This document shows positions 1 through 41,833 of a DNA stretch of 41,833 nucleotides, piece by piece. The stretch's first letter is position 1, and every line of letters starts with the position of its first letter. Position numbers and translations under genes: made by a program. Source of the DNA: a virus (taxonomy: Duplodnaviria > Caudoviricetes); the IMG/VR virus record IMGVR_UViG_3300025288_000041, positions 1 to 41,833 of that record. One strand, written 5' to 3'. Under the pieces are notes generated by a model. That model was not told the origin of the DNA. It did no database searches and saw only the letters and a program-made list of their open reading frames with translations.

Positions 1-309
1 ACGGCCATCCGGCCCACAAAGCCAAGAAAGTCCGCGAGTTCGTCGAGTCCGTGGCGCCGCGACTTGAGCTTCATTACCTTCCGCCCTACTCGCCGGACTT
101 GAATCCGGACGAACTCGTGTGGAACGATCTGAAGAACAACGGCATCGGCAGACAGGCGATTGCCGGACCGGATCACTTGAAGCGGGAGGTGATGTCCTTT
201 CTGCGTTATCTGCAGAAGACTCCCGCTCGAGTCGCCTCATATTTCCACGCCCCGACGATGCAGTATGCTTCCAAGTAAACGGGTCGTGACAATTATGAGA
301 CGGTTAGTA
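1..309 (+). mobile_element. IS630-family insertion sequence, 3' part of the transposase and right end
   Basis: Reads GHPAHKAKKVREFV...LELHYLPPYSPDLNPDELVWNDLK...YASK* (stop at 278), containing the IS630 DDE C-terminal motif LPPYSPDLNPxE. About 30 nt later the sequence ends ...GGTTAGTA with TA at 308-309, the IS630 target dinucleotide, and it interrupts a - strand gene starting at 323. Confidence 0.9.
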
Positions 310-323
310 ATTTCTCTCGGCAT
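310..323 (-). pseudogene. 5' stub (MPRE...) of a small phage gene interrupted by IS630
   Basis: SD AAGGAG plus ATG at 323 immediately after the upstream stop. The frame runs into the IS end at codon 5. Confidence 0.55.
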
Positions 324-325
324 GG

Positions 326-490
326 TCATGTCTCCTTCAATAGCTCGGCGGCTTGTTCGGGGGTGACTGCGTGGATCAGCTCTAACCAGGCCATGACGCG
401 CTTGGTCTGAGCCTCGGATACGTCCTTGTCAGCTGCTTTGTATTCAGCCAGGAGACGTTTGACCTCCTCAGCTTTTGTCGGCTCGGTCAT
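326..490 (-). CDS. small hypothetical protein (54 aa, MTEPTKAEEVKRLL...KET), not in the ORF track
   Basis: Translated by hand. AAGGAGG SD upstream and coupled to neighbouring genes. Confidence 0.7.
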   Translation of the reverse strand: MTEPTKAEEVKRLLAEYKAADKDVSEAQTKRVMAWLELIHAVTPEQAAELLKET

Positions 491-1157
491 TGTCATCCTC
501 CTTACCCTGTAGGATATTGATGGCCTTACGCAGGTGGTTGTTTGCTTCCACCGTGTCGTTCTCGTCCATCAGTTTTTGCGCATCTAGAACATACATGAGC
601 ACGTCTGGGTTGAAGGCTGGGTTGAATTCTTCGAGCACGTGGTTGGGAACCATGACCGGCATAACCACACCATGCAGCTCGCCACCTTTCGTGCGAATCA
701 GCATGGCGTCCCGGTATGTCTCGGTTGCTTCGAGGCGAATCTCTCCATCCAGCATGTTCCGGAGCTTCTCCAGGTATTCGTTGTTGATGGCCGAGACCTT
801 GCGTCCCTTCGGTCCGACCAGCAATCGGATCAGCCACGGGTTCATGGGATCCTTCCAGTAAAAGGAGGTGAGCTGAACGTCGACGTGCTCCCTGCTGGCT
901 TCCCGCTCAAGGAATTCGGCCAGGTTTAGGTGATCGACTTTGCCGGCGTGTTTGCCGTAGTCGATTCTCGTTGCGGATGCCTCGTCGTGATCGGGGAAGT
1001 AGCCCACGAAACAGTCCGGAACCTCGTCGGCCTTGAGTCGGAGCAGGAAATGCCCGTTGGTCACAAACAGGAATTCGCCGATCCGCTGGTAGCGGTAGTT
1101 CTCATTGCCCTTTTTCGTGGGATCCAGGAAAAAGGATAGGGTTGTTTTCTTGGCCAT
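468..1157 (-). CDS. DNA sliding-clamp (beta-clamp)-like phage protein, shorter than DnaN
   Basis: FVTNGHFLL resembles the clamp motif VATDGHRL. AINNEYLEKL...MLIR...GVVMPV resembles the clamp C-terminal FNxxYL...LIMP pattern. Confidence 0.55.
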   Translation of the reverse strand: MAKKTTLSFFLDPTKKGNENYRYQRIGEFLFVTNGHFLLRLKADEVPDCFVGYFPDHDEASATRIDYGKHAGKVDHLNLAEFLEREASREHVDVQLTSFYWKDPMNPWLIRLLVGPKGRKVSAINNEYLEKLRNMLDGEIRLEATETYRDAMLIRTKGGELHGVVMPVMVPNHVLEEFNPAFNPDVLMYVLDAQKLMDENDTVEANNHLRKAINILQGKEDDNDRADKS

Positions 1158-1160
1158 GGT

Positions 1161-1229
1161 TTATCCTTCCAGCTTGTTCAGCATGGCGCGAGCTGCTCCC
1201 GCTGCCGTGTGTCCGGATTTCAGATCCAT
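1161..1229 (-). pseudogene. 22-aa internally deleted gene remnant (MDLKSGHT-AAGAARAMLNKLEG)
   Basis: Strong SD GAGGAGG. The start resembles the M...HT(PGPW) beginning and the end resembles the ARAAxAKxEG ending common to small phage proteins, with the middle absent. Confidence 0.5.
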
Positions 1230-1230
1230 G

Positions 1231-1581
1231 TTAATCCTCCTCGACGGTATTGAGGATTTGCTGGATCAAGGTGCTGATTTTTTCCAGGTCGGTAGATGCT
1301 TCCGGTAGGCCCTCGGCGGCCAGGTCTTCGGCATTGGTGCTCGCCAGCTCGTGCGCTTCTTCCAGGATCGACCTGATGGTGCGCCCGGTGAAGCGAGAGT
1401 CGGCTCCGCTGCCGGCACTCTGTTCACATTCACCACAGAACAGCTCGCTCTTGTCGGAATTGGCGACTGCAAAGAACGAATCCGCTTCCGTCCAGGGATG
1501 GTTGGGGTCGGTCCACACCTGAGCTCGAAGCTCTGCGGTTGCGCCGCACGTGTCGCAGCTCCAGATGGTGAGGTTTCGCAT
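1231..1581 (-). CDS. zinc-ribbon-like hypothetical protein (CxxC...CxxC)
   Basis: CDTCG...AQVW...CGEC, SD AAGGAG. Similar pattern to 41249..41446. Confidence 0.75.
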   Translation of the reverse strand: MRNLTIWSCDTCGATAELRAQVWTDPNHPWTEADSFFAVANSDKSELFCGECEQSAGSGADSRFTGRTIRSILEEAHELASTNAEDLAAEGLPEASTDLEKISTLIQQILNTVEED

Positions 1582-1601
1582 GGCTTACTCCTTGCGGTGG
1601 G

Positions 1602-1630
1602 AAAAGAGGCGGGACCGATGATCCCGCCTC
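1602..1630 (-). terminator. intrinsic terminator-like hairpin
   Basis: GAGGCGGGA (1606-1614) / TCCCGCCTC (1622-1630) form a 9-bp stem followed by TTTT on the - strand. Confidence 0.55.
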
Positions 1631-1652
1631 CGGGTTGTGTCCTTGTCCCGGA

Positions 1653-1874
1653 CTACGCCAGGGCCAGGGCCAGGGCCTTCTGCGATACCTGCGCTCCGTT
1701 GCCGAACCACTGAGACTTGAGCCGTCCGGCATCGGTGCCGCGCTCGTGGTCCAGGTACTCGGTCACGGAGTTGTAGAGCGTCCAGTAGCTCCGCTTGAAT
1801 TGCTCCGGGATGGCGTCGTAGCCGAGCAGGTCACCTTCGAACTTGGTCAGGTCAGCGAAGGTCATGGTTTGCAT
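1653..1874 (-). pseudogene. DUF932/DUF945-like protein reduced to its C-terminal fragment
   Basis: SYWTLYNSVTEYLDHER...RLKSQWFGNGAQVSQKAL matches the DUF932 C-terminal motif (WxxxNAVTEyxDH...S.wfG.ga..K..A). Only 73 aa, whereas family members are typically about 300 aa. Confidence 0.65.
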
Positions 1875-1901
1875 GGTTTGCTCGCTTCCGGTTTGTTGGT
1901 T

Positions 1902-2078
1902 CTATTTGCGGTGGGCGAGTCTGCGGATCAGGTTCCGGGCCCTTGTGATTCTGTCGCGGCTTCCTTGTTGCAGTCGGCGAAATTCTTTTAGCGACATTCC
2001 TCGCTGGTCCCGTGTTTCGATCAGATAACGTTCCTGCATGATGATGGATCGCAGGTGATCGGCGTGTGTCCTGGTCAT
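1902..2078 (-). CDS. hypothetical basic protein (58 aa)
   Basis: Likely start MTRTHAD at 2078 with AGGAG SD upstream. Confidence 0.6.
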   Translation of the reverse strand: MTRTHADHLRSIIMQERYLIETRDQRGMSLKEFRRLQQGSRDRITRARNLIRRLAHRK

Positions 2079-2092
2079 GACCTGGTCTCCTG

Positions 2093-2371
2093 TTAGTGGG
2101 CTTTGACGATCCGCTTCCGGGCCGGGCGGCCTGCATTGCGCCGGGCCTGTGATTCCATGAAGAATTCCGGATGGTCCCGCTTCCACGACCTGGTGGCGTA
2201 TCCTGCCGGGTCCGGTTTGGTGGTCTTGTCGCGGATTCTCATGGTCGGCGAAAACTGGTAATTCTCGGTCCAGTGCGAATCCGTGGTTACTCCGTGTTCC
2301 TTGTCCGAAGGTTTCACGGCTGAACCTGGATGAATTCGATCATCCATTGTGGGCTCGATAAGGATTGACAT
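2093..2371 (-). CDS. hypothetical protein (92 aa), first gene of the leftward early cluster
   Basis: Start MSILIEP at 2371 preceded by AGGAGGG. Confidence 0.65.
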   Translation of the reverse strand: MSILIEPTMDDRIHPGSAVKPSDKEHGVTTDSHWTENYQFSPTMRIRDKTTKPDPAGYATRSWKRDHPEFFMESQARRNAGRPARKRIVKAH

Positions 2372-2389
2372 GGTTCCCTCCTGGTTTGT

Positions 2390-2870
2390 TAACGGGCCGG
2401 TCGGCACGAGTGTAACGGGGGATGTAAGGACCATCCGTGTTTTCGTGAAAATCCGACCGGCCAGATTATGCTCATTAGGTGGTGAGGGTTCAGGGTCTTT
2501 GCCCTCGATGTCGTCCGCCATGTATGCGACCCGGATCATGGATCCATCGCTTCCCTTGCTATAGGCTCCCCGGCCATACTAACGGCTCGATTATTTCTTG
2601 GCTTCAGCTTGCCATCCCTTGCCGCAGCTTGTGACCGCGACTCTCAGCGGGATCGTTTTCGTACCGTCTCACCCGGACGCTACCGGCGGGTGGCCTACTG
2701 CGGGCGCAAGAGATTATCTTGGCTTATCCCTTTCGGCGGTCGGCGTTGGCTTGATGTTTGCACGGTCTCGCCTTTGGTGCGGAATATCGGGGTTGGTTCC
2801 CGACTTGTGCCGCAAGGGTTGTCCCTGCCTCACCTTTCGCCTGTCCATCCGGGAACCCTCCCGGACCATG
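2390..2870 (-). ncRNA. candidate large structured non-coding RNA or 5' leader
   Basis: No convincing ORF. Dense nested inverted repeats: 2395-2404/2453-2462 (10 bp perfect), 2526-2550, 2622-2627/2698-2703, 2670-2675/2687-2692, 2778-2782/2810-2814, 2787-2791/2799-2803 and 2848-2854/2859-2865. Begins directly downstream of a sigma54-type promoter. Confidence 0.55.
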
Positions 2871-2880
2871 CCAAGAACAA

Positions 2881-2897
2881 AGCAGGCCTCATGCCAA
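2881..2897 (-). promoter_or_regulatory. sigma54 (RpoN) -24/-12 promoter
   Basis: TTGGCATGAGGCCTGCT has exact GG-N10-GC spacing (consensus TGGCAC-N5-TTGC). Confidence 0.6.
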
Positions 2898-3018
2898 TGT
2901 CCCATAAGTCCCAATAGTTACTTGATGTTCTGAATTGTGGAAAATTGTTCCTTGACAAATTCGCAAAATGCCCGCATATATTATAGATATGGGATATGGA
3001 TATAGATAACTTCAATGA

Positions 3019-3031
3019 TATCAATGGTTTA
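3019..3031 (+). promoter_or_regulatory. IHF binding site
   Basis: TATCAATGGTTTA is an exact match to WATCAANNNNTTR in an AT-rich tract. A one-mismatch site lies at 3440-3452. Confidence 0.55.
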
Positions 3032-3163
3032 AGGACAAGTCTGTTTGCAACGGATATTCGAGCAATCTGCAATGTTCCATGATTCCATGCCAGTTATGCG
3101 ATAGAAGGGTTGCGGATTTCTGGAGAATAGCTTGGAGATGCCGCTCCTGCAATGACTTACAAG

Positions 3164-3197
3164 GTTATCCCCCGTTGAAAATAAATCTGTGGATAAC
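3164..3197. promoter_or_regulatory. facing pair of DnaA-box-like sites
   Basis: TGTGGATAA (3188-3196) is a perfect reverse DnaA box, TTATCCCCC (3165-3173) has two mismatches, and TGTGGAAAA at 2936-2944 has one. Confidence 0.4.
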
Positions 3198-3258
3198 TTA
3201 TGTCCTATTGAGTAGACAGTATAGTTTGTCCATCGTTCAAGTATCATGCCAGTTTCGG

Positions 3259-3296
3259 TTTTGTTGGTCATTTTGTTGGTCATTTTGTTGGTCATT
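3259..3296. repeat. 12-bp tandem direct repeat, three copies (TTTTGTTGGTCA)
   Basis: Identical units at 3259-3270, 3271-3282 and 3283-3294. Confidence 0.95.
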
Positions 3297-3509
3297 CCCT
3301 GGAGTCCTTTGTTTGTTGCATGTTGCAAGGGTGTGCCGTGCAATTTGCAATGGGTGGCGACCGTCACGGGGTCCAGTTGATGAAACGGACTTGGGAACCT
3401 CTACCGCACAAGCATCCCCCGCCCTATAGGGGAAAAAGTTCTCAAGTGGTTGTAGTTGTGTGAGTTACGTTGATAAAGGCGTGAAATAGCATAATGGGGG
3501 TGAATTACG

Positions 3510-4379
3510 GTGTCTGAGCATCAAGACACAGGGGCCATGGTTGCGCCCAAGCGGAAGGTTGGTCGTCCGAAGGGGAGCAAGACGAAGAAATCTCGGTCGT
3601 CGTTGTTGGAATCGAAGGAGGGATTGTTGTCCCCTCGGGACCGCGAGACGATCGTGATGCTCTACTACCAGAACGGGTCTTACAAGCTGACGGCTTCTGC
3701 GTTGGGGATCACGCCGGCGACAGTTTCGCGGATCATTTCCGATAGCGAGAAGGATCCTCGCATGAAGGTCCTTCACGCCCAGGTGCTGGAGAAGCTGGCC
3801 GGTCAGTCCGTTGGTGTGGGCGTGAGGGTTCTGGAGTCGATCAAGGATGCCGAGCTCAAGACGACCTACCACAAGACCCACACCAAGGGAGGGGAGCTCA
3901 AGATCGCCCAGGAGGGCCCCTCGCTCGCCGACAAGGCGAAGATTGCCCAGGTGGCGGCCGACAGCGCCCAGAAGCTCACCGCCGCGGCTCAGAGCCTCAG
4001 AGGAGGCGGTGACGGGCAGGTCGGACTCATGCTGCCGACCGATATCGAGGCCGCTCGTCTGCTGTTGGCACAGAAAATGAAACGCCTGCGCATCCTGGAC
4101 GTCGAATTCGATGATTCGGAACCGGGCCAACTCGCGAAAAACGTGGTCAACCGGGCCGAACGAGGCGGGGTGACTGCCGAAATGGTGGCAGGCGTTCCGC
4201 AGGAGAGCCCCCTCGATCCGACATCCGGCCCAATCGTTTCACCCGAGCACGACCCTGATCCGTTTTCACAGGATCAGGAGCTCCCCGACAGCCTCGACTA
4301 CCTCAAAGAGCTCGGATTCGCGTCCGGGCCCTCCGTTTCTGACGCGGTGATCGACGAAAGAGGGCCATTTGATGCCTGA
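3510..4379 (+). CDS. terS: terminase small subunit (putative)
   Basis: Basic KRKVGRPKGSK segment, HTH-like SYKLTASALGITPATVSRII and a helical middle region. Lies just upstream of TerL. Confidence 0.65.
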   Translation: MSEHQDTGAMVAPKRKVGRPKGSKTKKSRSSLLESKEGLLSPRDRETIVMLYYQNGSYKLTASALGITPATVSRIISDSEKDPRMKVLHAQVLEKLAGQSVGVGVRVLESIKDAELKTTYHKTHTKGGELKIAQEGPSLADKAKIAQVAADSAQKLTAAAQSLRGGGDGQVGLMLPTDIEAARLLLAQKMKRLRILDVEFDDSEPGQLAKNVVNRAERGGVTAEMVAGVPQESPLDPTSGPIVSPEHDPDPFSQDQELPDSLDYLKELGFASGPSVSDAVIDERGPFDA

Positions 4380-4581
4380 TTTGCCAAAAATTCCCGGCGT
4401 GAAGTACAGCACCGATGGAAACGGGGACCAATTCGAAGGGCTTACCGCGAAAATCAAGGTTCCCTGCGACACCGGCGAAGGATTCGAGCTCCTCGAGCTT
4501 CCGATTATCATGAATCCGTACCTGCTGAGCCCACATCCCGGCTATGACCCGTGGTTTCTGAACGATACGGACGACGATTGA
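4372..4581 (+). CDS. small acidic hypothetical protein
   Basis: Overlaps the terS stop, and its stop overlaps the terL ATG (TGATG). Confidence 0.55.
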   Translation: MPDLPKIPGVKYSTDGNGDQFEGLTAKIKVPCDTGEGFELLELPIIMNPYLLSPHPGYDPWFLNDTDDD

Positions 4582-6170
4582 TGTACGAATCCACCGAAAT
4601 CGAGCTCAGGGCAGTCCAAGAAGCCCTGGTCGAGCTGCACAATTACGAGCAGCTGGTCAAAGCCCAGAAAATCGTCACCTTCCGGCCCCTCAAGCACGGC
4701 GATCAGGGAGTATTCTTCGCCAACCAGTGCGCCCGCGTCCGGGTCGTGCTCGGCAGCAACCGCTCGGGCAAAACCGTCTGCGGCGTGAACGAGGCCACCT
4801 CCCACTCGCTCGGATATCGGCCCTGGCTGCCCCAGGACCACCCGCTCAGAATCGTCAGGCTCACCAACGGCCAGCCGATACCCGTGCCCAACGTCGGACG
4901 GATCATCGCCCAGAACTACGAACAGGCCATTCGGCAGACCATCATGGTCAAAATCGACGAATGGGCGCCCAGGCAGGAAATCGACCACATCGAAAAGAAC
5001 ACCCGCGGGATCCCCGTGGGAATCCATTGGAAAAATGGATCGGTCATGCACCTGATGTCCAACGACCAGGACGACATGGCGTTCGAAGGACCCAGCGGAC
5101 ATTGGGCCTGGTTCGACGAACCCCCCGAACGCAACAAGTACACCGGTATCAGCCGCGGACTCGTCGACTACGAAGGCCACAGCTGGCTGACCATGACCCC
5201 GCTTACTCAGCCCTGGATCAACGATGTGCTGGTCTCCCGGTCCGGAGACCCGGACGGAGACATCCAGATGTTCCGATTCTCGATCTGGGACAACTGCACC
5301 GACCGCGGCGGCTACCTCACCCCCGAAGCCATCCGGGCCTTCTTGAGCGATCTGGACGAGCGCGAGATCGAGGCCCGCCTGCACGGAAACTTCCTGCATC
5401 TCGCCGGCCTGGTCTACAAGGAGTGGAAGCCGCGGCCTCCGTTCTGGGTCCCCTGGCAACCGATCCCCAGCTCGTGGCCCAGGGTCTGCGTCGTCGACCC
5501 TCACCCGCGCAAACCCATCGCCGTGATGTGGGGAGCCTGCTCACCCTCGAATATCTGGTATTTCTACCGCACCCTGTTCGATCGCAGCCTGGTTACCGTC
5601 CGGGACGTCGCCGACAAGATCCGGCACCTGGAAGGCTGGAAGAATGAACAGGTCCCGGGACCGAATGCCGATCCGGTCGTGCTCAGGATCATCGACACCA
5701 GCGCCGAATCCCAGGAACGCTCCAGTGACACCAGGGGCATGAACATCCGCAAGAAGTTCGCCGAGATCAGCCCCTTCCTGGCCCACACCAAAGCGAAGAA
5801 GGACAACGCGGATTTTGGCTACGATGCGATCCACCAGGCCCTCAAAATGCGCTACGAATGGGACACGCCCGGAATCGTGGTGATGAACACCTGCCCGCAG
5901 ATCAAGCAGAATTTTATGAACTTCTGCTTCGACGAATGGAATACCGGCCGGCTGCAGTCGAAAATGGGAGACAAGGAAACCTACCTCAAAACCCATGACG
6001 ATTTCATCGACGGGATTCGGTACATTTTCCAGATGGGCTTGACATATCAGATGCTGCGGTCGATGATGAACCAGTGGGCCCGCCAGTGGGACTCCGTGGA
6101 CGATTTCAATTTCAACCCCACAGGCTCGCTTCTGATGCGCACCGGAACTCGTACCGGGTACGGAACTTAG
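4581..6170 (+). CDS. terL: terminase large subunit
   Basis: Walker A GSNRSGKT, Walker B WFDE, coupling motif TMTP, nuclease motifs VVDPHP and HDDFIDGIRY. Likely ATG at 4581. Confidence 0.92.
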   Translation: MYESTEIELRAVQEALVELHNYEQLVKAQKIVTFRPLKHGDQGVFFANQCARVRVVLGSNRSGKTVCGVNEATSHSLGYRPWLPQDHPLRIVRLTNGQPIPVPNVGRIIAQNYEQAIRQTIMVKIDEWAPRQEIDHIEKNTRGIPVGIHWKNGSVMHLMSNDQDDMAFEGPSGHWAWFDEPPERNKYTGISRGLVDYEGHSWLTMTPLTQPWINDVLVSRSGDPDGDIQMFRFSIWDNCTDRGGYLTPEAIRAFLSDLDEREIEARLHGNFLHLAGLVYKEWKPRPPFWVPWQPIPSSWPRVCVVDPHPRKPIAVMWGACSPSNIWYFYRTLFDRSLVTVRDVADKIRHLEGWKNEQVPGPNADPVVLRIIDTSAESQERSSDTRGMNIRKKFAEISPFLAHTKAKKDNADFGYDAIHQALKMRYEWDTPGIVVMNTCPQIKQNFMNFCFDEWNTGRLQSKMGDKETYLKTHDDFIDGIRYIFQMGLTYQMLRSMMNQWARQWDSVDDFNFNPTGSLLMRTGTRTGYGT

Positions 6171-10563: not shown

Positions 10564-11304
10564 ATGGCCGACAATAAGCCCCCCAAAGGGATTGACTCCG
10601 GTGAGTTCGAGAAGGTCCGCGAGGACCAGAACGAGCTCCGTCGTGATCTCAATACCGTGCGCGGAAGCGTGGACGAGATGGGCCAGAAGGTCAAAGAAAC
10701 CGGCGACCAGGTACAGGAGCTTTCGGGCAACTTGGACCGCGTTGGCGGGATGATCGAGAAGGTCCTCGGCCACATCGAATCCGAGCAGGTGGAGAAGGAG
10801 CGCCGGGATCGCCTCAACTCAGGCGCCGGCTACGCTCCTCCCGGTATTGAGGAAATGACGATTCTCCGCGATCCGTTCGACGAGCAGAACCCGCATGATT
10901 TTCTCGCACATCCCCCGGGATTCAAACTCGGGTGGATCAATCCTCGTTACCGAGAGACCAGGAACATGCGGGGCTGGATCCCCATTCAGTACGACGACGA
11001 GATCGGAAAACACCTGGATCAGTACATCCATGCTGCGCCGCCGCGTATGTCCAATGCGGTCGACAACATCGTCCGCAGGGGAGACGTGATGTTGTGTCGC
11101 TTGCCCAACGAGATTTGGGAAGCGCGTCAGCAGAAGCGGATTCTCAAGGCCATGCGCGGCACCAAGGCCTATGAGGCGTACATCCAGAACGACTCCCCCA
11201 ATCAGCGGGGAAATTTCCGCGAGCTCGGCGAACCGGTACTGGCCGCGAACGAGCGGCATCTCGGAGGACGGCAGCTGCACGATCCTGGCTCTCCTGACGA
11301 ATAG
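10564..11304 (+). CDS. head-operon hypothetical protein (coiled coil plus PPGFKLGWIN...GWIP...GDVMLCRLP domain)
   Basis: The motif resembles the conserved gene between scaffold and capsid-accessory genes in such podoviruses. Strong SD. Confidence 0.7.
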   Translation: MADNKPPKGIDSGEFEKVREDQNELRRDLNTVRGSVDEMGQKVKETGDQVQELSGNLDRVGGMIEKVLGHIESEQVEKERRDRLNSGAGYAPPGIEEMTILRDPFDEQNPHDFLAHPPGFKLGWINPRYRETRNMRGWIPIQYDDEIGKHLDQYIHAAPPRMSNAVDNIVRRGDVMLCRLPNEIWEARQQKRILKAMRGTKAYEAYIQNDSPNQRGNFRELGEPVLAANERHLGGRQLHDPGSPDE

Positions 11305-11315
11305 GAGAGACGACC

Positions 11316-11876
11316 ATGCCCGTTACTGGAAACATGGCCCTTCCGGGCCTGGTCCCGGTGCGCAACCCCAATGGCAACGCCCCGCAGATCACCTGGTATC
11401 AGGTGGATTCCGCTTACGGCAGCGCCATCGGAGAGGGCAATCTGCTGATCGAGACGACCGCGGGCGTGGAGCTCGCCGGCGCGACCGTGACCAACGGAAC
11501 CGTGCTCGGCGTCGCTGCTGCGAACGTCGCCGCCTCGCTCTCGGCCGATACCCCGATCCCGGTCTACGATGATCCGAACCAGATGTTCAGCATCATCGCA
11601 GACGGGGCGATCGCGGATACCAACATCATCCGTGGTCGCTTTGCCGGGATCGTCGCTGGGACCAACGTCTACAACTCGACGTTGAGGCAGGGCAACACCC
11701 AGCTGGACATTTCGGTAGCATCCGGGACCTTCGGGTCCGGGCTGCCGTTGCAGATCATGGAAGTGCTCAACAACATGGCCGACGACCTGACCGCTGCCAA
11801 CGTGGCTGTCATGGTTCGAATCGCCGCGGTTGTCCACTTCTGGACCTCGCAGTCCGGCACCACCAACAGGCCGTAG
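11316..11876 (+). CDS. capsid cement/decoration protein (putative)
   Basis: GLVPVR...AIGEG...VLGV...VYDDPNQMF pattern, immediately upstream of the major capsid gene. Confidence 0.7.
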   Translation: MPVTGNMALPGLVPVRNPNGNAPQITWYQVDSAYGSAIGEGNLLIETTAGVELAGATVTNGTVLGVAAANVAASLSADTPIPVYDDPNQMFSIIADGAIADTNIIRGRFAGIVAGTNVYNSTLRQGNTQLDISVASGTFGSGLPLQIMEVLNNMADDLTAANVAVMVRIAAVVHFWTSQSGTTNRP

Positions 11877-30566: not shown

Positions 30567-31088
30567 TTCTAGATCCGATAGGCGCAAATACCCTCTGCCG
30601 TCGGCCCCCTCCATGAGCTCAAGCAATGGGAAGTACCACGACTGACCCCAGGAAACATGCAGTATCTCCATGCCCCATTCGTGCAGGAATTTTAGTGCAA
30701 GATCGCCAGGAATTACGTCCTCGCCCTCCTTCGGCTCGGCGTCCTCGGCGCAGTAGCAGCCGTCCGCATCTTCTCCGCACTCCGGGCACGACCAGTTCGA
30801 ACACTCGCCCCTTTCGTCCTTCATTACGATTACCCGCACCGGCCCGCAGTAGTCTCCCCTCGAACTGTTCGGCTTTTCCGAATACTTGGCGCACCAGTCG
30901 TCCGCCTTCGTAAACACGCCGGGGCCGACACCAACGACGAACCTCTTGCTACGCGCCCCTCGCCGTGGCCAGTAGTCATACGGTGACCATTGGCGGCAAA
31001 AACCGCTTGTAGCGCCCCTCTCCATTGCGCCGGAATGGCTCCAGTGACGGCACGACCGGCACGCCTCGCTAAGTATGTCACGGTCCAT
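30516..31088 (-). CDS. Cys-rich hypothetical protein, possibly a fusion of several small genes
   Basis: Start MDRDIL at 31088 via TGATG coupling. CRSCRHW...GFCR...DDWC module followed by a CPECG...CYC module. Confidence 0.6.
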   Translation of the reverse strand: MDRDILSEACRSCRHWSHSGAMERGATSGFCRQWSPYDYWPRRGARSKRFVVGVGPGVFTKADDWCAKYSEKPNSSRGDYCGPVRVIVMKDERGECSNWSCPECGEDADGCYCAEDAEPKEGEDVIPGDLALKFLHEWGMEILHVSWGQSWYFPLLELMEGADGRGYLRLSDLELAKQRRSDHSEESPEG

Positions 31089-31777
31089 CACTCGCCCCCT
31101 TTGATAGCATCGAACACCGCCGGGATGACAGCGGCATAGGTGTGGCGGCCCTCGTTCCGTGCTCTCGCAACAAAGGCTTCTACGGTTCCACGCCAACATC
31201 CTGCTTCGACCATTTTAGTGCCGCACTTGCCGAGCACGCATTTTACCTGACGGCCCGATCCATCAACGTTTGATATCGTAAGCCATGCGGACACTATGAC
31301 CCCAAGCCACTTGCACTCGTCGCCAAGCGTGCACCTGTTGCCAAGCGTGCACCTGGTGCCAAGCTTGCACCTGTTGCCAAGCTTGCACCTGTTGCCAAGC
31401 TTGCACCAGTCGCCAAGCGTGCACTCGTTGCCAAGCGTGCACTCTTTGCCAAGCGTGCACTCTTTGCCAAGCGTGCACTCGTTGCCAAGCGTGCACTCTT
31501 TGCCAAGCGTGCACTCGTTGCCAAGCGTGCACTCTTTGCCAAGCGTGCACTCGTTGCCAAGCGTGCACTCTTTGCCAAGCTTGCACCAGTCGCCAAGCTT
31601 GCACCAGTCGCCAAGCTTGCACCAGTCGCCAAGCTTGCACCAGTTGCCAAGCGTGCACTCGTTGCCAAGCTTGCACCAGTTGCCAAGCTGCGAATAATCC
31701 GGGATGGTCGTACCGTCTTTTATTCTCGCGTTAGGCGGTACGATCCAGCCTCCGCATTCATTCAGTGGGTAATCCAT
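31088..31777 (-). CDS. hexapeptide-repeat (left-handed beta-helix-like) phage protein
   Basis: 21 LGxxC(K/T) repeats, then a C-terminal VEAGCWRGTVEAF domain. Start MDYPLN at 31777. Confidence 0.8.
   Translation of the reverse strand: MDYPLNECGGWIVPPNARIKDGTTIPDYSQLGNWCKLGNECTLGNWCKLGDWCKLGDWCKLGDWCKLGKECTLGNECTLGKECTLGNECTLGKECTLGNECTLGKECTLGKECTLGNECTLGDWCKLGNRCKLGNRCKLGTRCTLGNRCTLGDECKWLGVIVSAWLTISNVDGSGRQVKCVLGKCGTKMVEAGCWRGTVEAFVARARNEGRHTYAAVIPAVFDAIKGGE
31310..31687. repeat. 18-bp coding tandem repeat, 21 copies
   Basis: Unit CTTGGC-NNN-NNG-TGC-A(A/C)G on the - strand. Confidence 0.95.
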
Positions 31778-31973
31778 CACTCGCCCCTTTCGTCGGGTTT
31801 CCCGCCGTTGAGGTAGTGCAACAGCCGTTTGGACTGCCACTCGTGTTCAGCGGCCGCTGCGGCGGCCCGTGCGGCGGCCCGTGCGGCCAATGTGGCCTCT
31901 GCGGCCAATGCGGCGGCCAAAGGAGGTTTTGGAACGGAGATTTTCCTTCGGTTGATAAAAACTTGAGGTACAT
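31777..31973 (-). pseudogene. Ala-repeat phage protein with internal deletion and frameshift
   Basis: MYLKFLSTEGKSPFQNLLW is followed in another frame by LAAALAAEATLAARAAARAAAAAAEHEWQSKRLLHYLNGGKPDERGE*, whose TGA overlaps the next ATG. Confidence 0.7.
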
Positions 31974-34662: not shown

Positions 34663-35016
34663 CTATTCCTCCTGCTCCTTGGCCTTGAGGTAGACCTGAC
34701 CGGCATGCAAAACGACCACGACCCAATCCTTGCCGCCGGCCTTGATGGAGTGGTCCACTCCATCGTAGGCGTTGAAGGTGATCCAATCCCCCACCGAAAG
34801 CCCGGCTACTCCGAGCTTTGTAGCTTCGGCCCGGTAGCTCTGCCCCAGCTGGAGGATGCGCCCGGTGCTCTCTCGACGTTTGCCCTCGTCGGGGACGATG
34901 ATGTGCCCGATTTTTCCTGGAGTCTCGTCCCTCAAGAGCAGAACCCTGGGTCCCATGATCTCGATGTTGGCCAGAGCCACGCGGGCCTCATCGAAGCGGT
35001 CCATGTTCGACGGCAT
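34663..35016 (-). CDS. groES: GroES-like co-chaperonin
   Basis: GPRVLL, GHIIVPD mobile loop, TGRILQLG and VGDWITFNAYDG match the Cpn10 pattern. AGGAGG SD. Confidence 0.85.
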   Translation of the reverse strand: MPSNMDRFDEARVALANIEIMGPRVLLLRDETPGKIGHIIVPDEGKRRESTGRILQLGQSYRAEATKLGVAGLSVGDWITFNAYDGVDHSIKAGGKDWVVVVLHAGQVYLKAKEQEE

Positions 35017-39502: not shown

Positions 39503-39571
39503 CACTTCTCCTTGATGTTGTGGGCGCCCCGTTTCGATATCGTGAAAGTACGACGGACGCCCAACGGAAGA

Positions 39572-39600
39572 ATTGTAGCGCGTGCTACTGGTGGCGTCAA
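39572..39600 (-). promoter_or_regulatory. sigma70-type promoter (TTGACG-N17-TACAAT)
   Basis: -35 at 39595-39600 and -10 at 39572-39577, with 17-bp spacing. Confidence 0.7.
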
Positions 39601-39626
39601 CAGGAAATGTAGCACGTGCTACATTT
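39575..39626. promoter_or_regulatory. two operator-like palindromes (GTAGCRCGTGCTAC)
   Basis: Perfect 22-bp palindrome AAATGTAGCACGTGCTACATTT (39605-39626) and a one-mismatch copy of the core at 39575-39588. Confidence 0.75.
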
Positions 39627-39631
39627 TTTTC

Positions 39632-39660
39632 TTGCTGGTTCTGTGCTGGTGGTGTAGTAT
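39632..39660 (+). promoter_or_regulatory. possible rightward sigma70 promoter (TTGCTG-N17-TAGTAT)
   Basis: Spacing fits and it points toward the replication gene, but the match is weaker. Confidence 0.4.
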
Positions 39661-39975
39661 GGTTTTGGTAGAAACGGAGCGCAGTGCCCAGGGATGGAAC
39701 GCCGTGACCGCTCCGGCGCTGGTGTGGGGATTTGCGTTTCCTCCAGCATCGGCGTCCGGGGAGAGTGATGCCAACCATCGCTCTCCCTTGGAAACGGGGG
39801 GTTGACTGCCCTCCCCGGGGGATCGGTACGCCGCGACCGTACTGGTTCCCTGCTTGGCGGCGGGTTTTCGGTGAGTTCACCCGCCGCCATTCTTCGGTGG
39901 GGTCGGGTCGCTCCCGATCTCAGGGGGGCACCGTGACGGGCGGTGCTCCCCGCTTCTTCCCGTCAGGAGGTTCCC

Positions 39976-40776
39976 ATGGCGAAGGACAGCTGGTTCAAGG
40001 CCTACACGTCGATTTTGCTTTCTGAAAAATATGTTACCCTCCCAGATAACGATCATCGCCTGGTGTTTTGGCACTTCCTGGCTTTCCAGCGCAAGGGCAT
40101 CCACCGGCAGCCGGACTACTTCCTCGCGCCGCTATGCCATTGTGATATCCCCAAGTTTTCCACAATACGTGCGACACTTATAAATCATAACCTGTTAAAT
40201 AATGAAGGGGGTGTTGTTGGGTTCGATGAAATGCAAGTAAACAAAGAAGCTATAAGGAAACGACGGCAAAGAGACGGGACACGTCACGGGACAAGTCACG
40301 GGACAAGTCACGGGACTGTCCCGGGGGATGCAGAGGCAGATGCAGAGGCAAAATCAGAAGCAGAAAAAGAACCCCCCCTTACCCCCCCCGCGGGGGGTGG
40401 TGCATCTGCAGGAAAAACGAAGCCCAACGGGAAGTTTTCTCAGAAGCACCTGGACGTGGCCCAGCAGCTGACCGATTTATGGAACGATCACTTCGGCCGC
40501 AACCTCTCGATCACCGACAGCCTGACCTCAGCGGTCCGGGCCGCCTGGCGCAAGATGCCGGCCGCCACGGCCTCCGACTTCAAGGCCGTTTTCTCTGACC
40601 GCCTCAAGGGCCAGTGGGTTGACCCGGCCGAGCATGTGCCGGCCTCGCTGATCCGGGCCAAGGACTTCGAGGCCCATGTGGCCCGCATCAAATCAGCCGA
40701 ATCGTTCCGGGTGCCGAACGCCGAGGCCCTCGAGGACCAAATTCATCGAGAATTCGGATGGGATGACGAATCATGA
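39976..40776 (+). CDS. phage replication initiator (replisome organiser / lambda O-like)
   Basis: SWFKAYTSIL N-terminus, RKRRQR, internal direct repeats, EAEKEPPLTPP linker and a DnaD-like C-domain. AGGAGG SD. Confidence 0.8.
   Translation: MAKDSWFKAYTSILLSEKYVTLPDNDHRLVFWHFLAFQRKGIHRQPDYFLAPLCHCDIPKFSTIRATLINHNLLNNEGGVVGFDEMQVNKEAIRKRRQRDGTRHGTSHGTSHGTVPGDAEADAEAKSEAEKEPPLTPPAGGGASAGKTKPNGKFSQKHLDVAQQLTDLWNDHFGRNLSITDSLTSAVRAAWRKMPAATASDFKAVFSDRLKGQWVDPAEHVPASLIRAKDFEAHVARIKSAESFRVPNAEALEDQIHREFGWDDES
40274..40320. repeat. 12-bp iterons, about four copies (ACGGGACAAGTC); probable replication origin inside the initiator gene
   Basis: Units start at 40274, 40286, 40298 and 40310, followed by purine-rich GATGCAGAGGCA repeats. 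Confidence 0.75.
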
Positions 40777-41671: not shown

Positions 41672-41709
41672 AACGTCTCCTTTGCCTTGGCGATGGCGGC
41701 GCGGGCTGC
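41668..41709 (-). pseudogene. 3' stub of a small phage gene (...AARAAIAKAKETL*)
   Basis: Typical ARAAIAKA C-terminus, cut off upstream by IS sequence. Confidence 0.65.
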
Positions 41710-41833
41710 GTGAACCGATCCACCGTGTATGGGTGGTTGGCCCTGTACCGCAGCGGTGGCTGGGACCGCTTGGACGCCAAGAAGCGGGGTGGGCGGCCTC
41801 CGCTTCTTGATGCCAAGATGATGAAGTGGATCT
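41710..41833 (+). mobile_element. IS630-family transposase N-terminal HTH fragment, 5'-truncated
   Basis: VNRSTVYGWLALYRSGGWDRLDAKKRGGRPPLLDAKMMKWI is a typical IS630 HTH plus GRPP segment. No left inverted repeat or native start upstream. Confidence 0.85.

Follow-up and report, generated by a model that had tools for sequence, protein, structure and literature searches.

What occupies the 480 nt or so (2390-2870) that precede the first early gene of a tailed phage and appear to hold no gene? In the window, i.e., the whole 41,833-nt stretch of viral DNA analyzed here, an earlier note had singled out this region as a minus-strand RNA filled with nested stems and expressed from a -24/-12 promoter, either a new class of large noncoding RNA or a complex leader heading the early operon. 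The leader is supported by related phages and by a real first gene at 2371, while the new class is not shown, the folding being unremarkable and both a homologue and a minus-strand terminator being absent from our searches. We consider it somewhat probable that the stretch is a cis-acting 5′ untranslated leader of the early operon, made from a sigma-54 promoter that would need a host activator of the NtrC family.

The stretch lies at the head of the early arm

In the tailed-phage genome of the window, the plus strand encodes terminase, an SU10-type portal, and capsid from 3510 onward, and the minus strand to the left of that position carries small genes. The stretch is bounded by the first conserved early gene on one side and by the point at which both arms diverge on the other. 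A second assembly links both ends of the window through an IS630 element of the early arm (window 1-310 and 41700-41833; also L085:8094-9050), which breaks assembly, and the genome therefore maps as a circle of ~42.3 kb. The phage is listed in 24 groundwater or aquifer sequencing runs; no RNA dataset is among the runs listed, which has no bearing on expression. In a search for the host, the terminase gave matches of only 21-28% in cultured phages and two bins among genome contigs, and the IS630 element matched proteobacterial plasmids at 64-69%. The description of the genome as tightly packed was overstated, since 2900-3500 and about 39510-39940 are gene-poor as well. The features that frame the stretch are as follows.

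2093 to 2371, minus strand: first early gene, encoding a basic 92-aa protein of no known family, with five homologue clusters (P0002-P0005 and P0008)
2377 to 2382, minus strand: AGGAGG, the Shine-Dalgarno (SD) sequence of this gene
2372 to 2870, minus strand: predicted 5′ leader of the early operon, ~500 nt, between the promoter box P1 and the first conserved gene

The gene at 2371-2093 is real, to judge from its homologue clusters and its strong SD sequence. The protein has no Pfam or PHROG match, its structural model is of low confidence (pLDDT 60), and its Atlas matches stay under 0.9.

A predicted sigma-54 enhancer cassette is shared with related phages

Sigma-54 polymerase opens a promoter only with an ATP-dependent enhancer-binding protein. 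The -24/-12 promoter proposed for this locus is borne out by a perfect box, which is found at the same place in relatives. Two boxes face the early genes.

2881 to 2896, minus strand: sigma-54 -24/-12 box P1, gene-proximal, with a predicted start near 2870
3236 to 3251, minus strand: second sigma-54-like box P2, with a mismatch at the C of -12

P1 has the GG at -24 and GC at -12, at exact spacing, that define a sigma-54 box. It is the sole perfect match in the window and ranks top when scored with a matrix derived from 39 sites in relatives. With one mismatch allowed, there are four matches in the window versus 2.56 expected, and judged from the window alone P1 would be weak evidence for a promoter.

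Comparison with relatives is more telling. At the exact spacer of 5, box matches number 45 upstream of the terminase gene versus 2 downstream (57 loci, which are non-independent), and seven other spacers give 1-5 matches upstream in these loci. When loci were grouped into lineages at 80% terminase identity, a strict box was found on the early strand in 11 of the 19 lineages, the window counted, for which 2.5 kb or more of upstream sequence is available, and the 201 kb of upstream sequence hold 38 boxes versus 0-3 in 20 shuffles. A GCA-N3-TGC dyad lies within -130 to -40 of the gene-proximal box in 11 of 15 lineages (a set that excludes L039, L016, L070, and L083, and in which L009 represents its group), in a count that relied on boxes selected by eye, a relaxed pattern being used for some, and on a dyad discovered in the same data. 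Shuffles gave a mean of 0.27 and a maximum of 3 (1000 shuffles), and an equal-size downstream window gave 0 of 15. The distances (-63 to -65, -75/-76, -85/-87, -95 to -99, and -109) advance in steps of about one helical turn. The window itself has the following elements upstream of its boxes.

2963 to 2971, either strand: GCA-N3-TGC dyad, 75 bp upstream of P1, a predicted activator site
3019 to 3031, plus strand: match to the IHF consensus, the sole perfect one in the window
3062 to 3070, either strand: second dyad, 174 bp upstream of P1
3318 to 3348, either strand: two TGCA-N3-TGCA dyads, at -75 and -97 relative to P2

Four of the 26 dyads of the window fall within 2900-3500. Both minus-strand boxes (2896 and 3251) carry a dyad at exactly -75, giving two tandem cassettes that face the early genes. 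The dyad upstream of P1 has the form of an enhancer-binding-protein site, as a prediction from a motif derived from the same data. Promoters of this kind may also have an IHF site between enhancer and box. The IHF match here sits between the two dyads, upstream of the proximal one, and 16 related loci hold no match to this consensus with up to one mismatch. Across eight DNA runs, the sole variant found affects position 2883, where two of seven covering runs, one of them at depth 2.2, have lost the invariant -13 G of P1; no variation was found within the leader where these runs cover it. The change may be a low-depth error or a silenced promoter copy in phage that carry the early-arm insertion.

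The sigma-54 activator domain (PF00158) was found in none of 17 related virus records and in none of the 47 window ORFs scanned, a subset of all ORFs. With no activator of their own in these records, early transcription in these phages would therefore be gated by a host protein that recognizes sites of the LuxO/AlgB type. On sequence grounds, we regard the enhancer cassette and the position of the leader as well supported.

The arrangement resembles known host systems. The LuxO site is TTGCA-N3-TGCAA (PMC3352281) and the AlgB site is TGCANNNTGCA (PMC12780092), and the LuxO/VanO qrr promoters and the AlgB site of Pseudomonas aeruginosa dimA combine, as here, a -24/-12 box with an upstream dyad of the TGCA-N3-TGCA type; LuxO promoters likewise drive noncoding RNA. 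The NmpR site (PMC11841059) has N5 spacing, unlike the dyad here. In contrast to the LuxO and AlgB cases, the match here is by predicted site geometry, in a phage in which no activator gene was found, the proximal dyad is the shorter GCA-N3-TGC, and the transcript would read through into genes where theirs stops at a terminator. Among phages, Pseudomonas phage YuA has a sigma-54-like promoter, P015 (PMC10914365). That case is a single promoter in an unrelated phage, whereas here a box-plus-dyad cassette is found clade-wide and heads the early arm. In the phage sigma-54 promoter literature, largely that outside subscription papers, YuA was the sole precedent found, and a clade-wide enhancer cassette did not appear. 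If the cassette works, the early genes of a whole clade of uncultured phages start only while the host has an active two-component activator with LuxO/AlgB-type sites. The phage would then read the state of its host directly at the first step, and the 9-bp dyad would be a handle on both host and signal.

Several other features of this intergenic region were seen in passing. Between both promoter cassettes lie a DnaA-box-like word at 3188-3196 and three exact 12-bp tandem repeats (3259-3294), possibly an origin or terminus feature. Among relatives, L083 has seven perfect sigma-54 boxes in an array with a period of ~27 bp (435-618, minus strand), L043, L045, and L059 have facing box pairs, and tRNA genes lie between the early promoters and terS at L058:1913-2067, L066:8865-9056, and L083:2407-2489.

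The folding of the leader is not exceptional

The stems described previously are real as base pairing, in that all nine pairings checked by coordinate are perfect Watson-Crick complements. The predicted minus-strand ensemble contains these elements.

2865 to 2870, minus strand: predicted 5′-end helix, 6 bp with 2369-2374, which covers the start codon (probability 0.82)
2848 to 2865, minus strand: first hairpin of the leader, present in the ensemble, in a layout common to L043/L044/L045 and L046
2778 to 2814, minus strand: nested stem-loop (probability 0.82-0.98)
2481 to 2834, minus strand: predicted long-range helix of 2823-2834 with 2481-2495, 7+5 bp, closing ~330 nt (probability 0.58-0.69)
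2395 to 2462, minus strand: long interrupted hairpin just 5′ of the ribosome-binding site (base probability about 1.0)

The hairpins at 2395-2462, 2778-2814, 2526-2550, and 2848-2865 are kept in this ensemble with probabilities of 0.66-1.0. Two other proposed elements, the 2484-2506 hairpin and the multiloop that 2622-2627/2698-2703 closes around two inner stems, are absent among minus-strand helices above a probability of 0.15. The long-range helix found no comparative support.

That the stretch is unusually structured did not survive comparison with dinucleotide shuffles. Stems of at least 5 bp number 78 versus 88 ± 10 in 200 shuffles, and local stems 24 versus 30; 16 of 200 shuffles contain a perfect 10-bp stem, and 39 of 100 equal the best 70-nt window. 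The 68-nt hairpin taken alone has a z of -4.7, but it was selected as the best one; the 2395-2462 hairpin, which has a 5-nt bulge after 10 bp, is not exceptional once selection is allowed for. The stems are no more than a sequence with a GC content of 59% yields. For folding energy, z was -2.33 (minus strand) or -2.55 for the whole region and -1.69 for the 499-nt leader; the plus strand gave -1.45. Ranked among 30 genome windows the region is seventh, six of 29 other 481-nt windows folding better (20 shuffles each). The 259-nt leader of the related locus L044, which is truly structured and contains a hammerhead ribozyme, has a z of -0.78, so that a functional RNA in the stretch can be neither established nor dismissed on folding energy.

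Searches for a known RNA and the RNAs of related phages

The earlier note could not place the sequence by eye in a known RNA class. Rfam searches, run on the whole window at gathering score and on 2000-3600 at E up to 10, agree, with four chance matches, none of them in the leader. Neither Rfam nor ARAGORN returned a group I or II intron, RNase P, tmRNA, or riboswitch, and the covariance models of GOLLD and ROOL and that of manA (RF01745) gave no match in the window. GOLLD, ROOL, and manA are alike to the leader in size range and phage location. In contrast to them, the leader has no model match, no tRNA neighbors, no terminator, and no homologues that could be aligned for covariation. GOLLD and ROOL are often near tRNA genes (PMC12286853), and the window has no tRNA gene. 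A hammerhead descriptor (conserved core, three stems) found six matches in L043-L045 and none in the leader, where models and core motifs of twister, twister-sister, pistol, hatchet, hairpin, and HDV-like ribozymes did not match either, the descriptors being used without positive controls. A boxA-like word is absent. On the minus strand, 1-4500 contains no terminator, and a discrete RNA would therefore have no defined free 3′ end.

Homologues were sought widely. Phage and plasmid records gave three 29-nt chance matches at first and then none, the whole records behind 28 loci gave 0 of 28, and nhmmer against the fetched loci (64, terminase-related) returned only the leader itself. Of the motif scans of viral contigs, one likewise returned only self and the others 3, 5, and 41 non-self matches without further similarity, 39 of the 41 lying in long open frames. 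Viral and metagenome scans with the DNA of the first gene's homologues returned only this phage.

Related phages do carry RNAs in the same slot. Six type II hammerheads are found by the descriptor on the minus strand (L043:386; L044:6136 and 5605; L045:1711, 1161, and 598), each shortly before the SD sequence of an early gene. Three of the six lie just below the Rfam threshold (E 0.0004-0.019), and L043-L045 are one lineage. The first hammerhead follows a ~170-nt leader segment, unmatched in Rfam at gathering score, that shows compensatory changes and a possible pseudoknot; between the L044 leader and those of L043/L045, compensatory changes affect 6 of 59 pairs (three sequences). Outside L043-L045, a model of this leader matched neither the window nor any of 29 other sources. 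The presence of hammerheads in this slot makes a functional RNA in the leader of the window plausible. Type II hammerheads have been described in phage polycistrons (Perreault 2011, PMC3088659), and those of L043-L045 occupy the same slot, whereas the leader of the window has none.

Of 30 loci, the window, L043-L045, and L046 share a layout of box, second TGGCA(T/C), and hairpin. When the first hairpin was tested for covariation on four distinct rows, pair counts did not exceed controls. In L062, a manA RNA (65 bits) lies at 4772-4976 on the plus strand, on the terS side, just upstream of the small-terminase region. This neighborhood is an unusual context for manA, a family now reported to form cages. 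By a single rule, the distance from box to first SD-backed ORF is 41 to 758 nt in 11 loci, and a long leader is therefore not unique to this phage. In L022 (3466-3510) and in L040/L012, the box is followed by a short leader of two hairpins, the first of which has a compensated stem, and then by homologous small Arg-rich first genes.

These observations bear on whether the leader represents a new class of large elaborate RNA, be it an ornate leader, a cage RNA like ROOL, GOLLD, or manA, or an undescribed self-cleaving ribozyme. The nested long-range helices of the ensemble and the z values of -2.3 to -2.6 favor it, as do the hammerheads and manA RNA of the clade and the low score of the L044 leader. 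So does a repeated motif, both copies of which are present as first described.

2712 to 2725, minus strand: motif copy 1
2589 to 2604, minus strand: motif copy 2

The repeat occurs in 1.9% of 2000 shuffles, in a test designed after the motif had been seen, and is modestly unusual. A larger tandem duplication within the leader is nonsignificant (258 of 500 shuffles as good). Stem counts at shuffle level, the better folding of other windows, and homology searches that yielded chance matches only argue against a new class, together with the lack of a terminator. Also against it, a likeness between the leader and the N-terminal extension of P0002 (15.8 bits) failed its control, as high a score being reached in 15 of 60 shuffles and in 12 of the 82 windows taken from the genome. 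Overall, we judge a new RNA class unlikely. Because hammerheads fill this slot in relatives, the importance of the RNA would rise considerably should it turn out to be a new ribozyme or a new cage-forming class.

A predicted release of the start codon

For the cis-acting leader that we favor, the predicted folding suggests how it might act. The transcript would begin near 2870 and, with no terminator on the way, continue into the 92-aa gene at 2371. In the full-length leader, its 5′ end is predicted to pair over the start codon, in a helix that 0.7% of the 12-mers of the genome could form and for which the best counterpart in 11 related loci has 0-5 bp. The predicted unpaired probability of the start codon is 0.0 in the full leader and 0.9-1.0 when the leader is cut at 2480; the SD sequence is predicted to remain partly paired even in cut forms. 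Removal of the 5′ part would thus free the start codon, and cutting or refolding of the leader would therefore switch on translation. The hammerheads of L043-L045 appear to bring about such a release in the same slot. In the window, the 2395-2462 hairpin is a candidate processing site or 5′-protecting stem, as far as the model goes. A bolder version, in which an undescribed catalytic or ornate leader detaches itself from the early transcript by cleavage, thereby exposing the start codon, and, jointly with a host quorum or stress activator, gates the start of infection, seems to us quite unlikely.

T7-like phages have long early leaders with RNase III hairpins, as in T7. As here, such leaders depend on host promoters and comprise several hundred noncoding bases with a long hairpin before the first ribosome-binding site. 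They differ in that the promoter here is of the sigma-54 and not the sigma-70 type and the hairpin is bulged, and RNase III cleavage is only a candidate. In LUZ19, early promoters lie upstream of gp0.1 (PMC10914365).

Coding potential of the stretch

The claim that the stretch has no convincing ORF stands in part. All six frames of 2390-2870 score negative in a codon model for which 17 long phage ORFs served as the training set, but two reading frames are open, a 56-codon extension of the first gene (2539-2372) and the following ORF.

2714 to 2848, minus strand: 44-codon basic ORF in the leader, doubtful, with its SD sequence inside the first hairpin

The stretch might accordingly be coding in part, with a 44-aa basic first gene (2848-2714), a first gene that is 56 codons longer (from 2539), or both, leaving only short spacers. 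One SD rule makes the 44-aa ORF the first downstream of the box, and small Arg/Lys-rich ORFs come first in the relatives L040, L022, L059, and L065. Its codon score, however, is -0.12; 5% of real pieces score as low, and open wrong frames score as high in 37% of cases. A database search gave no candidate with words in common. As for the extension, its codon score is 0.08 versus 0.09 for the gene itself, a value reached by only 10% of open wrong frames, gene callers place the start of the first gene at 2539 on 18 contigs (P0007), and P0002 likewise has an N-terminal extension. Against it, homologues align only from the 2371 start onward and none over the 56 upstream codons, four of the five homologue clusters begin at about 2371, and this start has a strong SD sequence. 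Partial coding is thus decidedly unlikely in our view.

The stretch as DNA

Alternatively, the stretch might act as DNA, as spacer DNA heading the early arm, with degenerate sigma-54 sites and operators, the hairpins being by-products of a GC content of 59% and the repeated motif the reverse of a -24-like word. One further box is relevant here.

2747 to 2762, plus strand: sigma-54-like box inside the leader, facing P1, with no dyad upstream, overlapping a third partial copy of the motif

This box is a good one, all three motif cores read TTGGCTT on the plus strand, and facing boxes and arrays are found in L043, L045, L059, and L083. The gap between terS and the early genes is, moreover, long and unalignable across the clade. 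However, only the copy at 2747 has a correctly spaced -12 element, the conserved TAATC part of the motif is left unexplained, and if P1 works, the stretch is transcribed regardless. A role purely as DNA is, we think, very unlikely.

A sponge RNA like CsrB or CrcZ would carry many unpaired GGA or AANAANAA motifs and a terminator, and such a product of an activator-dependent promoter is most improbable here, for although ANGGA is enriched (8 versus 3.7 expected; 2.3% of shuffles), GGA overall is not (15 versus 12), AANAANAA is absent, most ANGGA sites are predicted to be paired, and there is no terminator.

Additional features of the genome

Elsewhere in the window, the gene-poor stretch at 39510-39940 has a sigma-70-like promoter overlapped by two palindromes (~39575-39620), together with GC-rich hairpins, and the window at 39700 folds with a z of -3.2; a divergent 277-aa ORF without a Pfam match follows at 39943-40776. 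The best-folding window sampled (z -5.3) is at 11200-11680 on the plus strand, around the start of the 11316 ORF and before the capsid gene. A type I hammerhead match within a window gene looks spurious. On the minus strand, the phage encodes a GroES-like co-chaperonin (34663-35016) and a hexapeptide-repeat protein (31088-31840).
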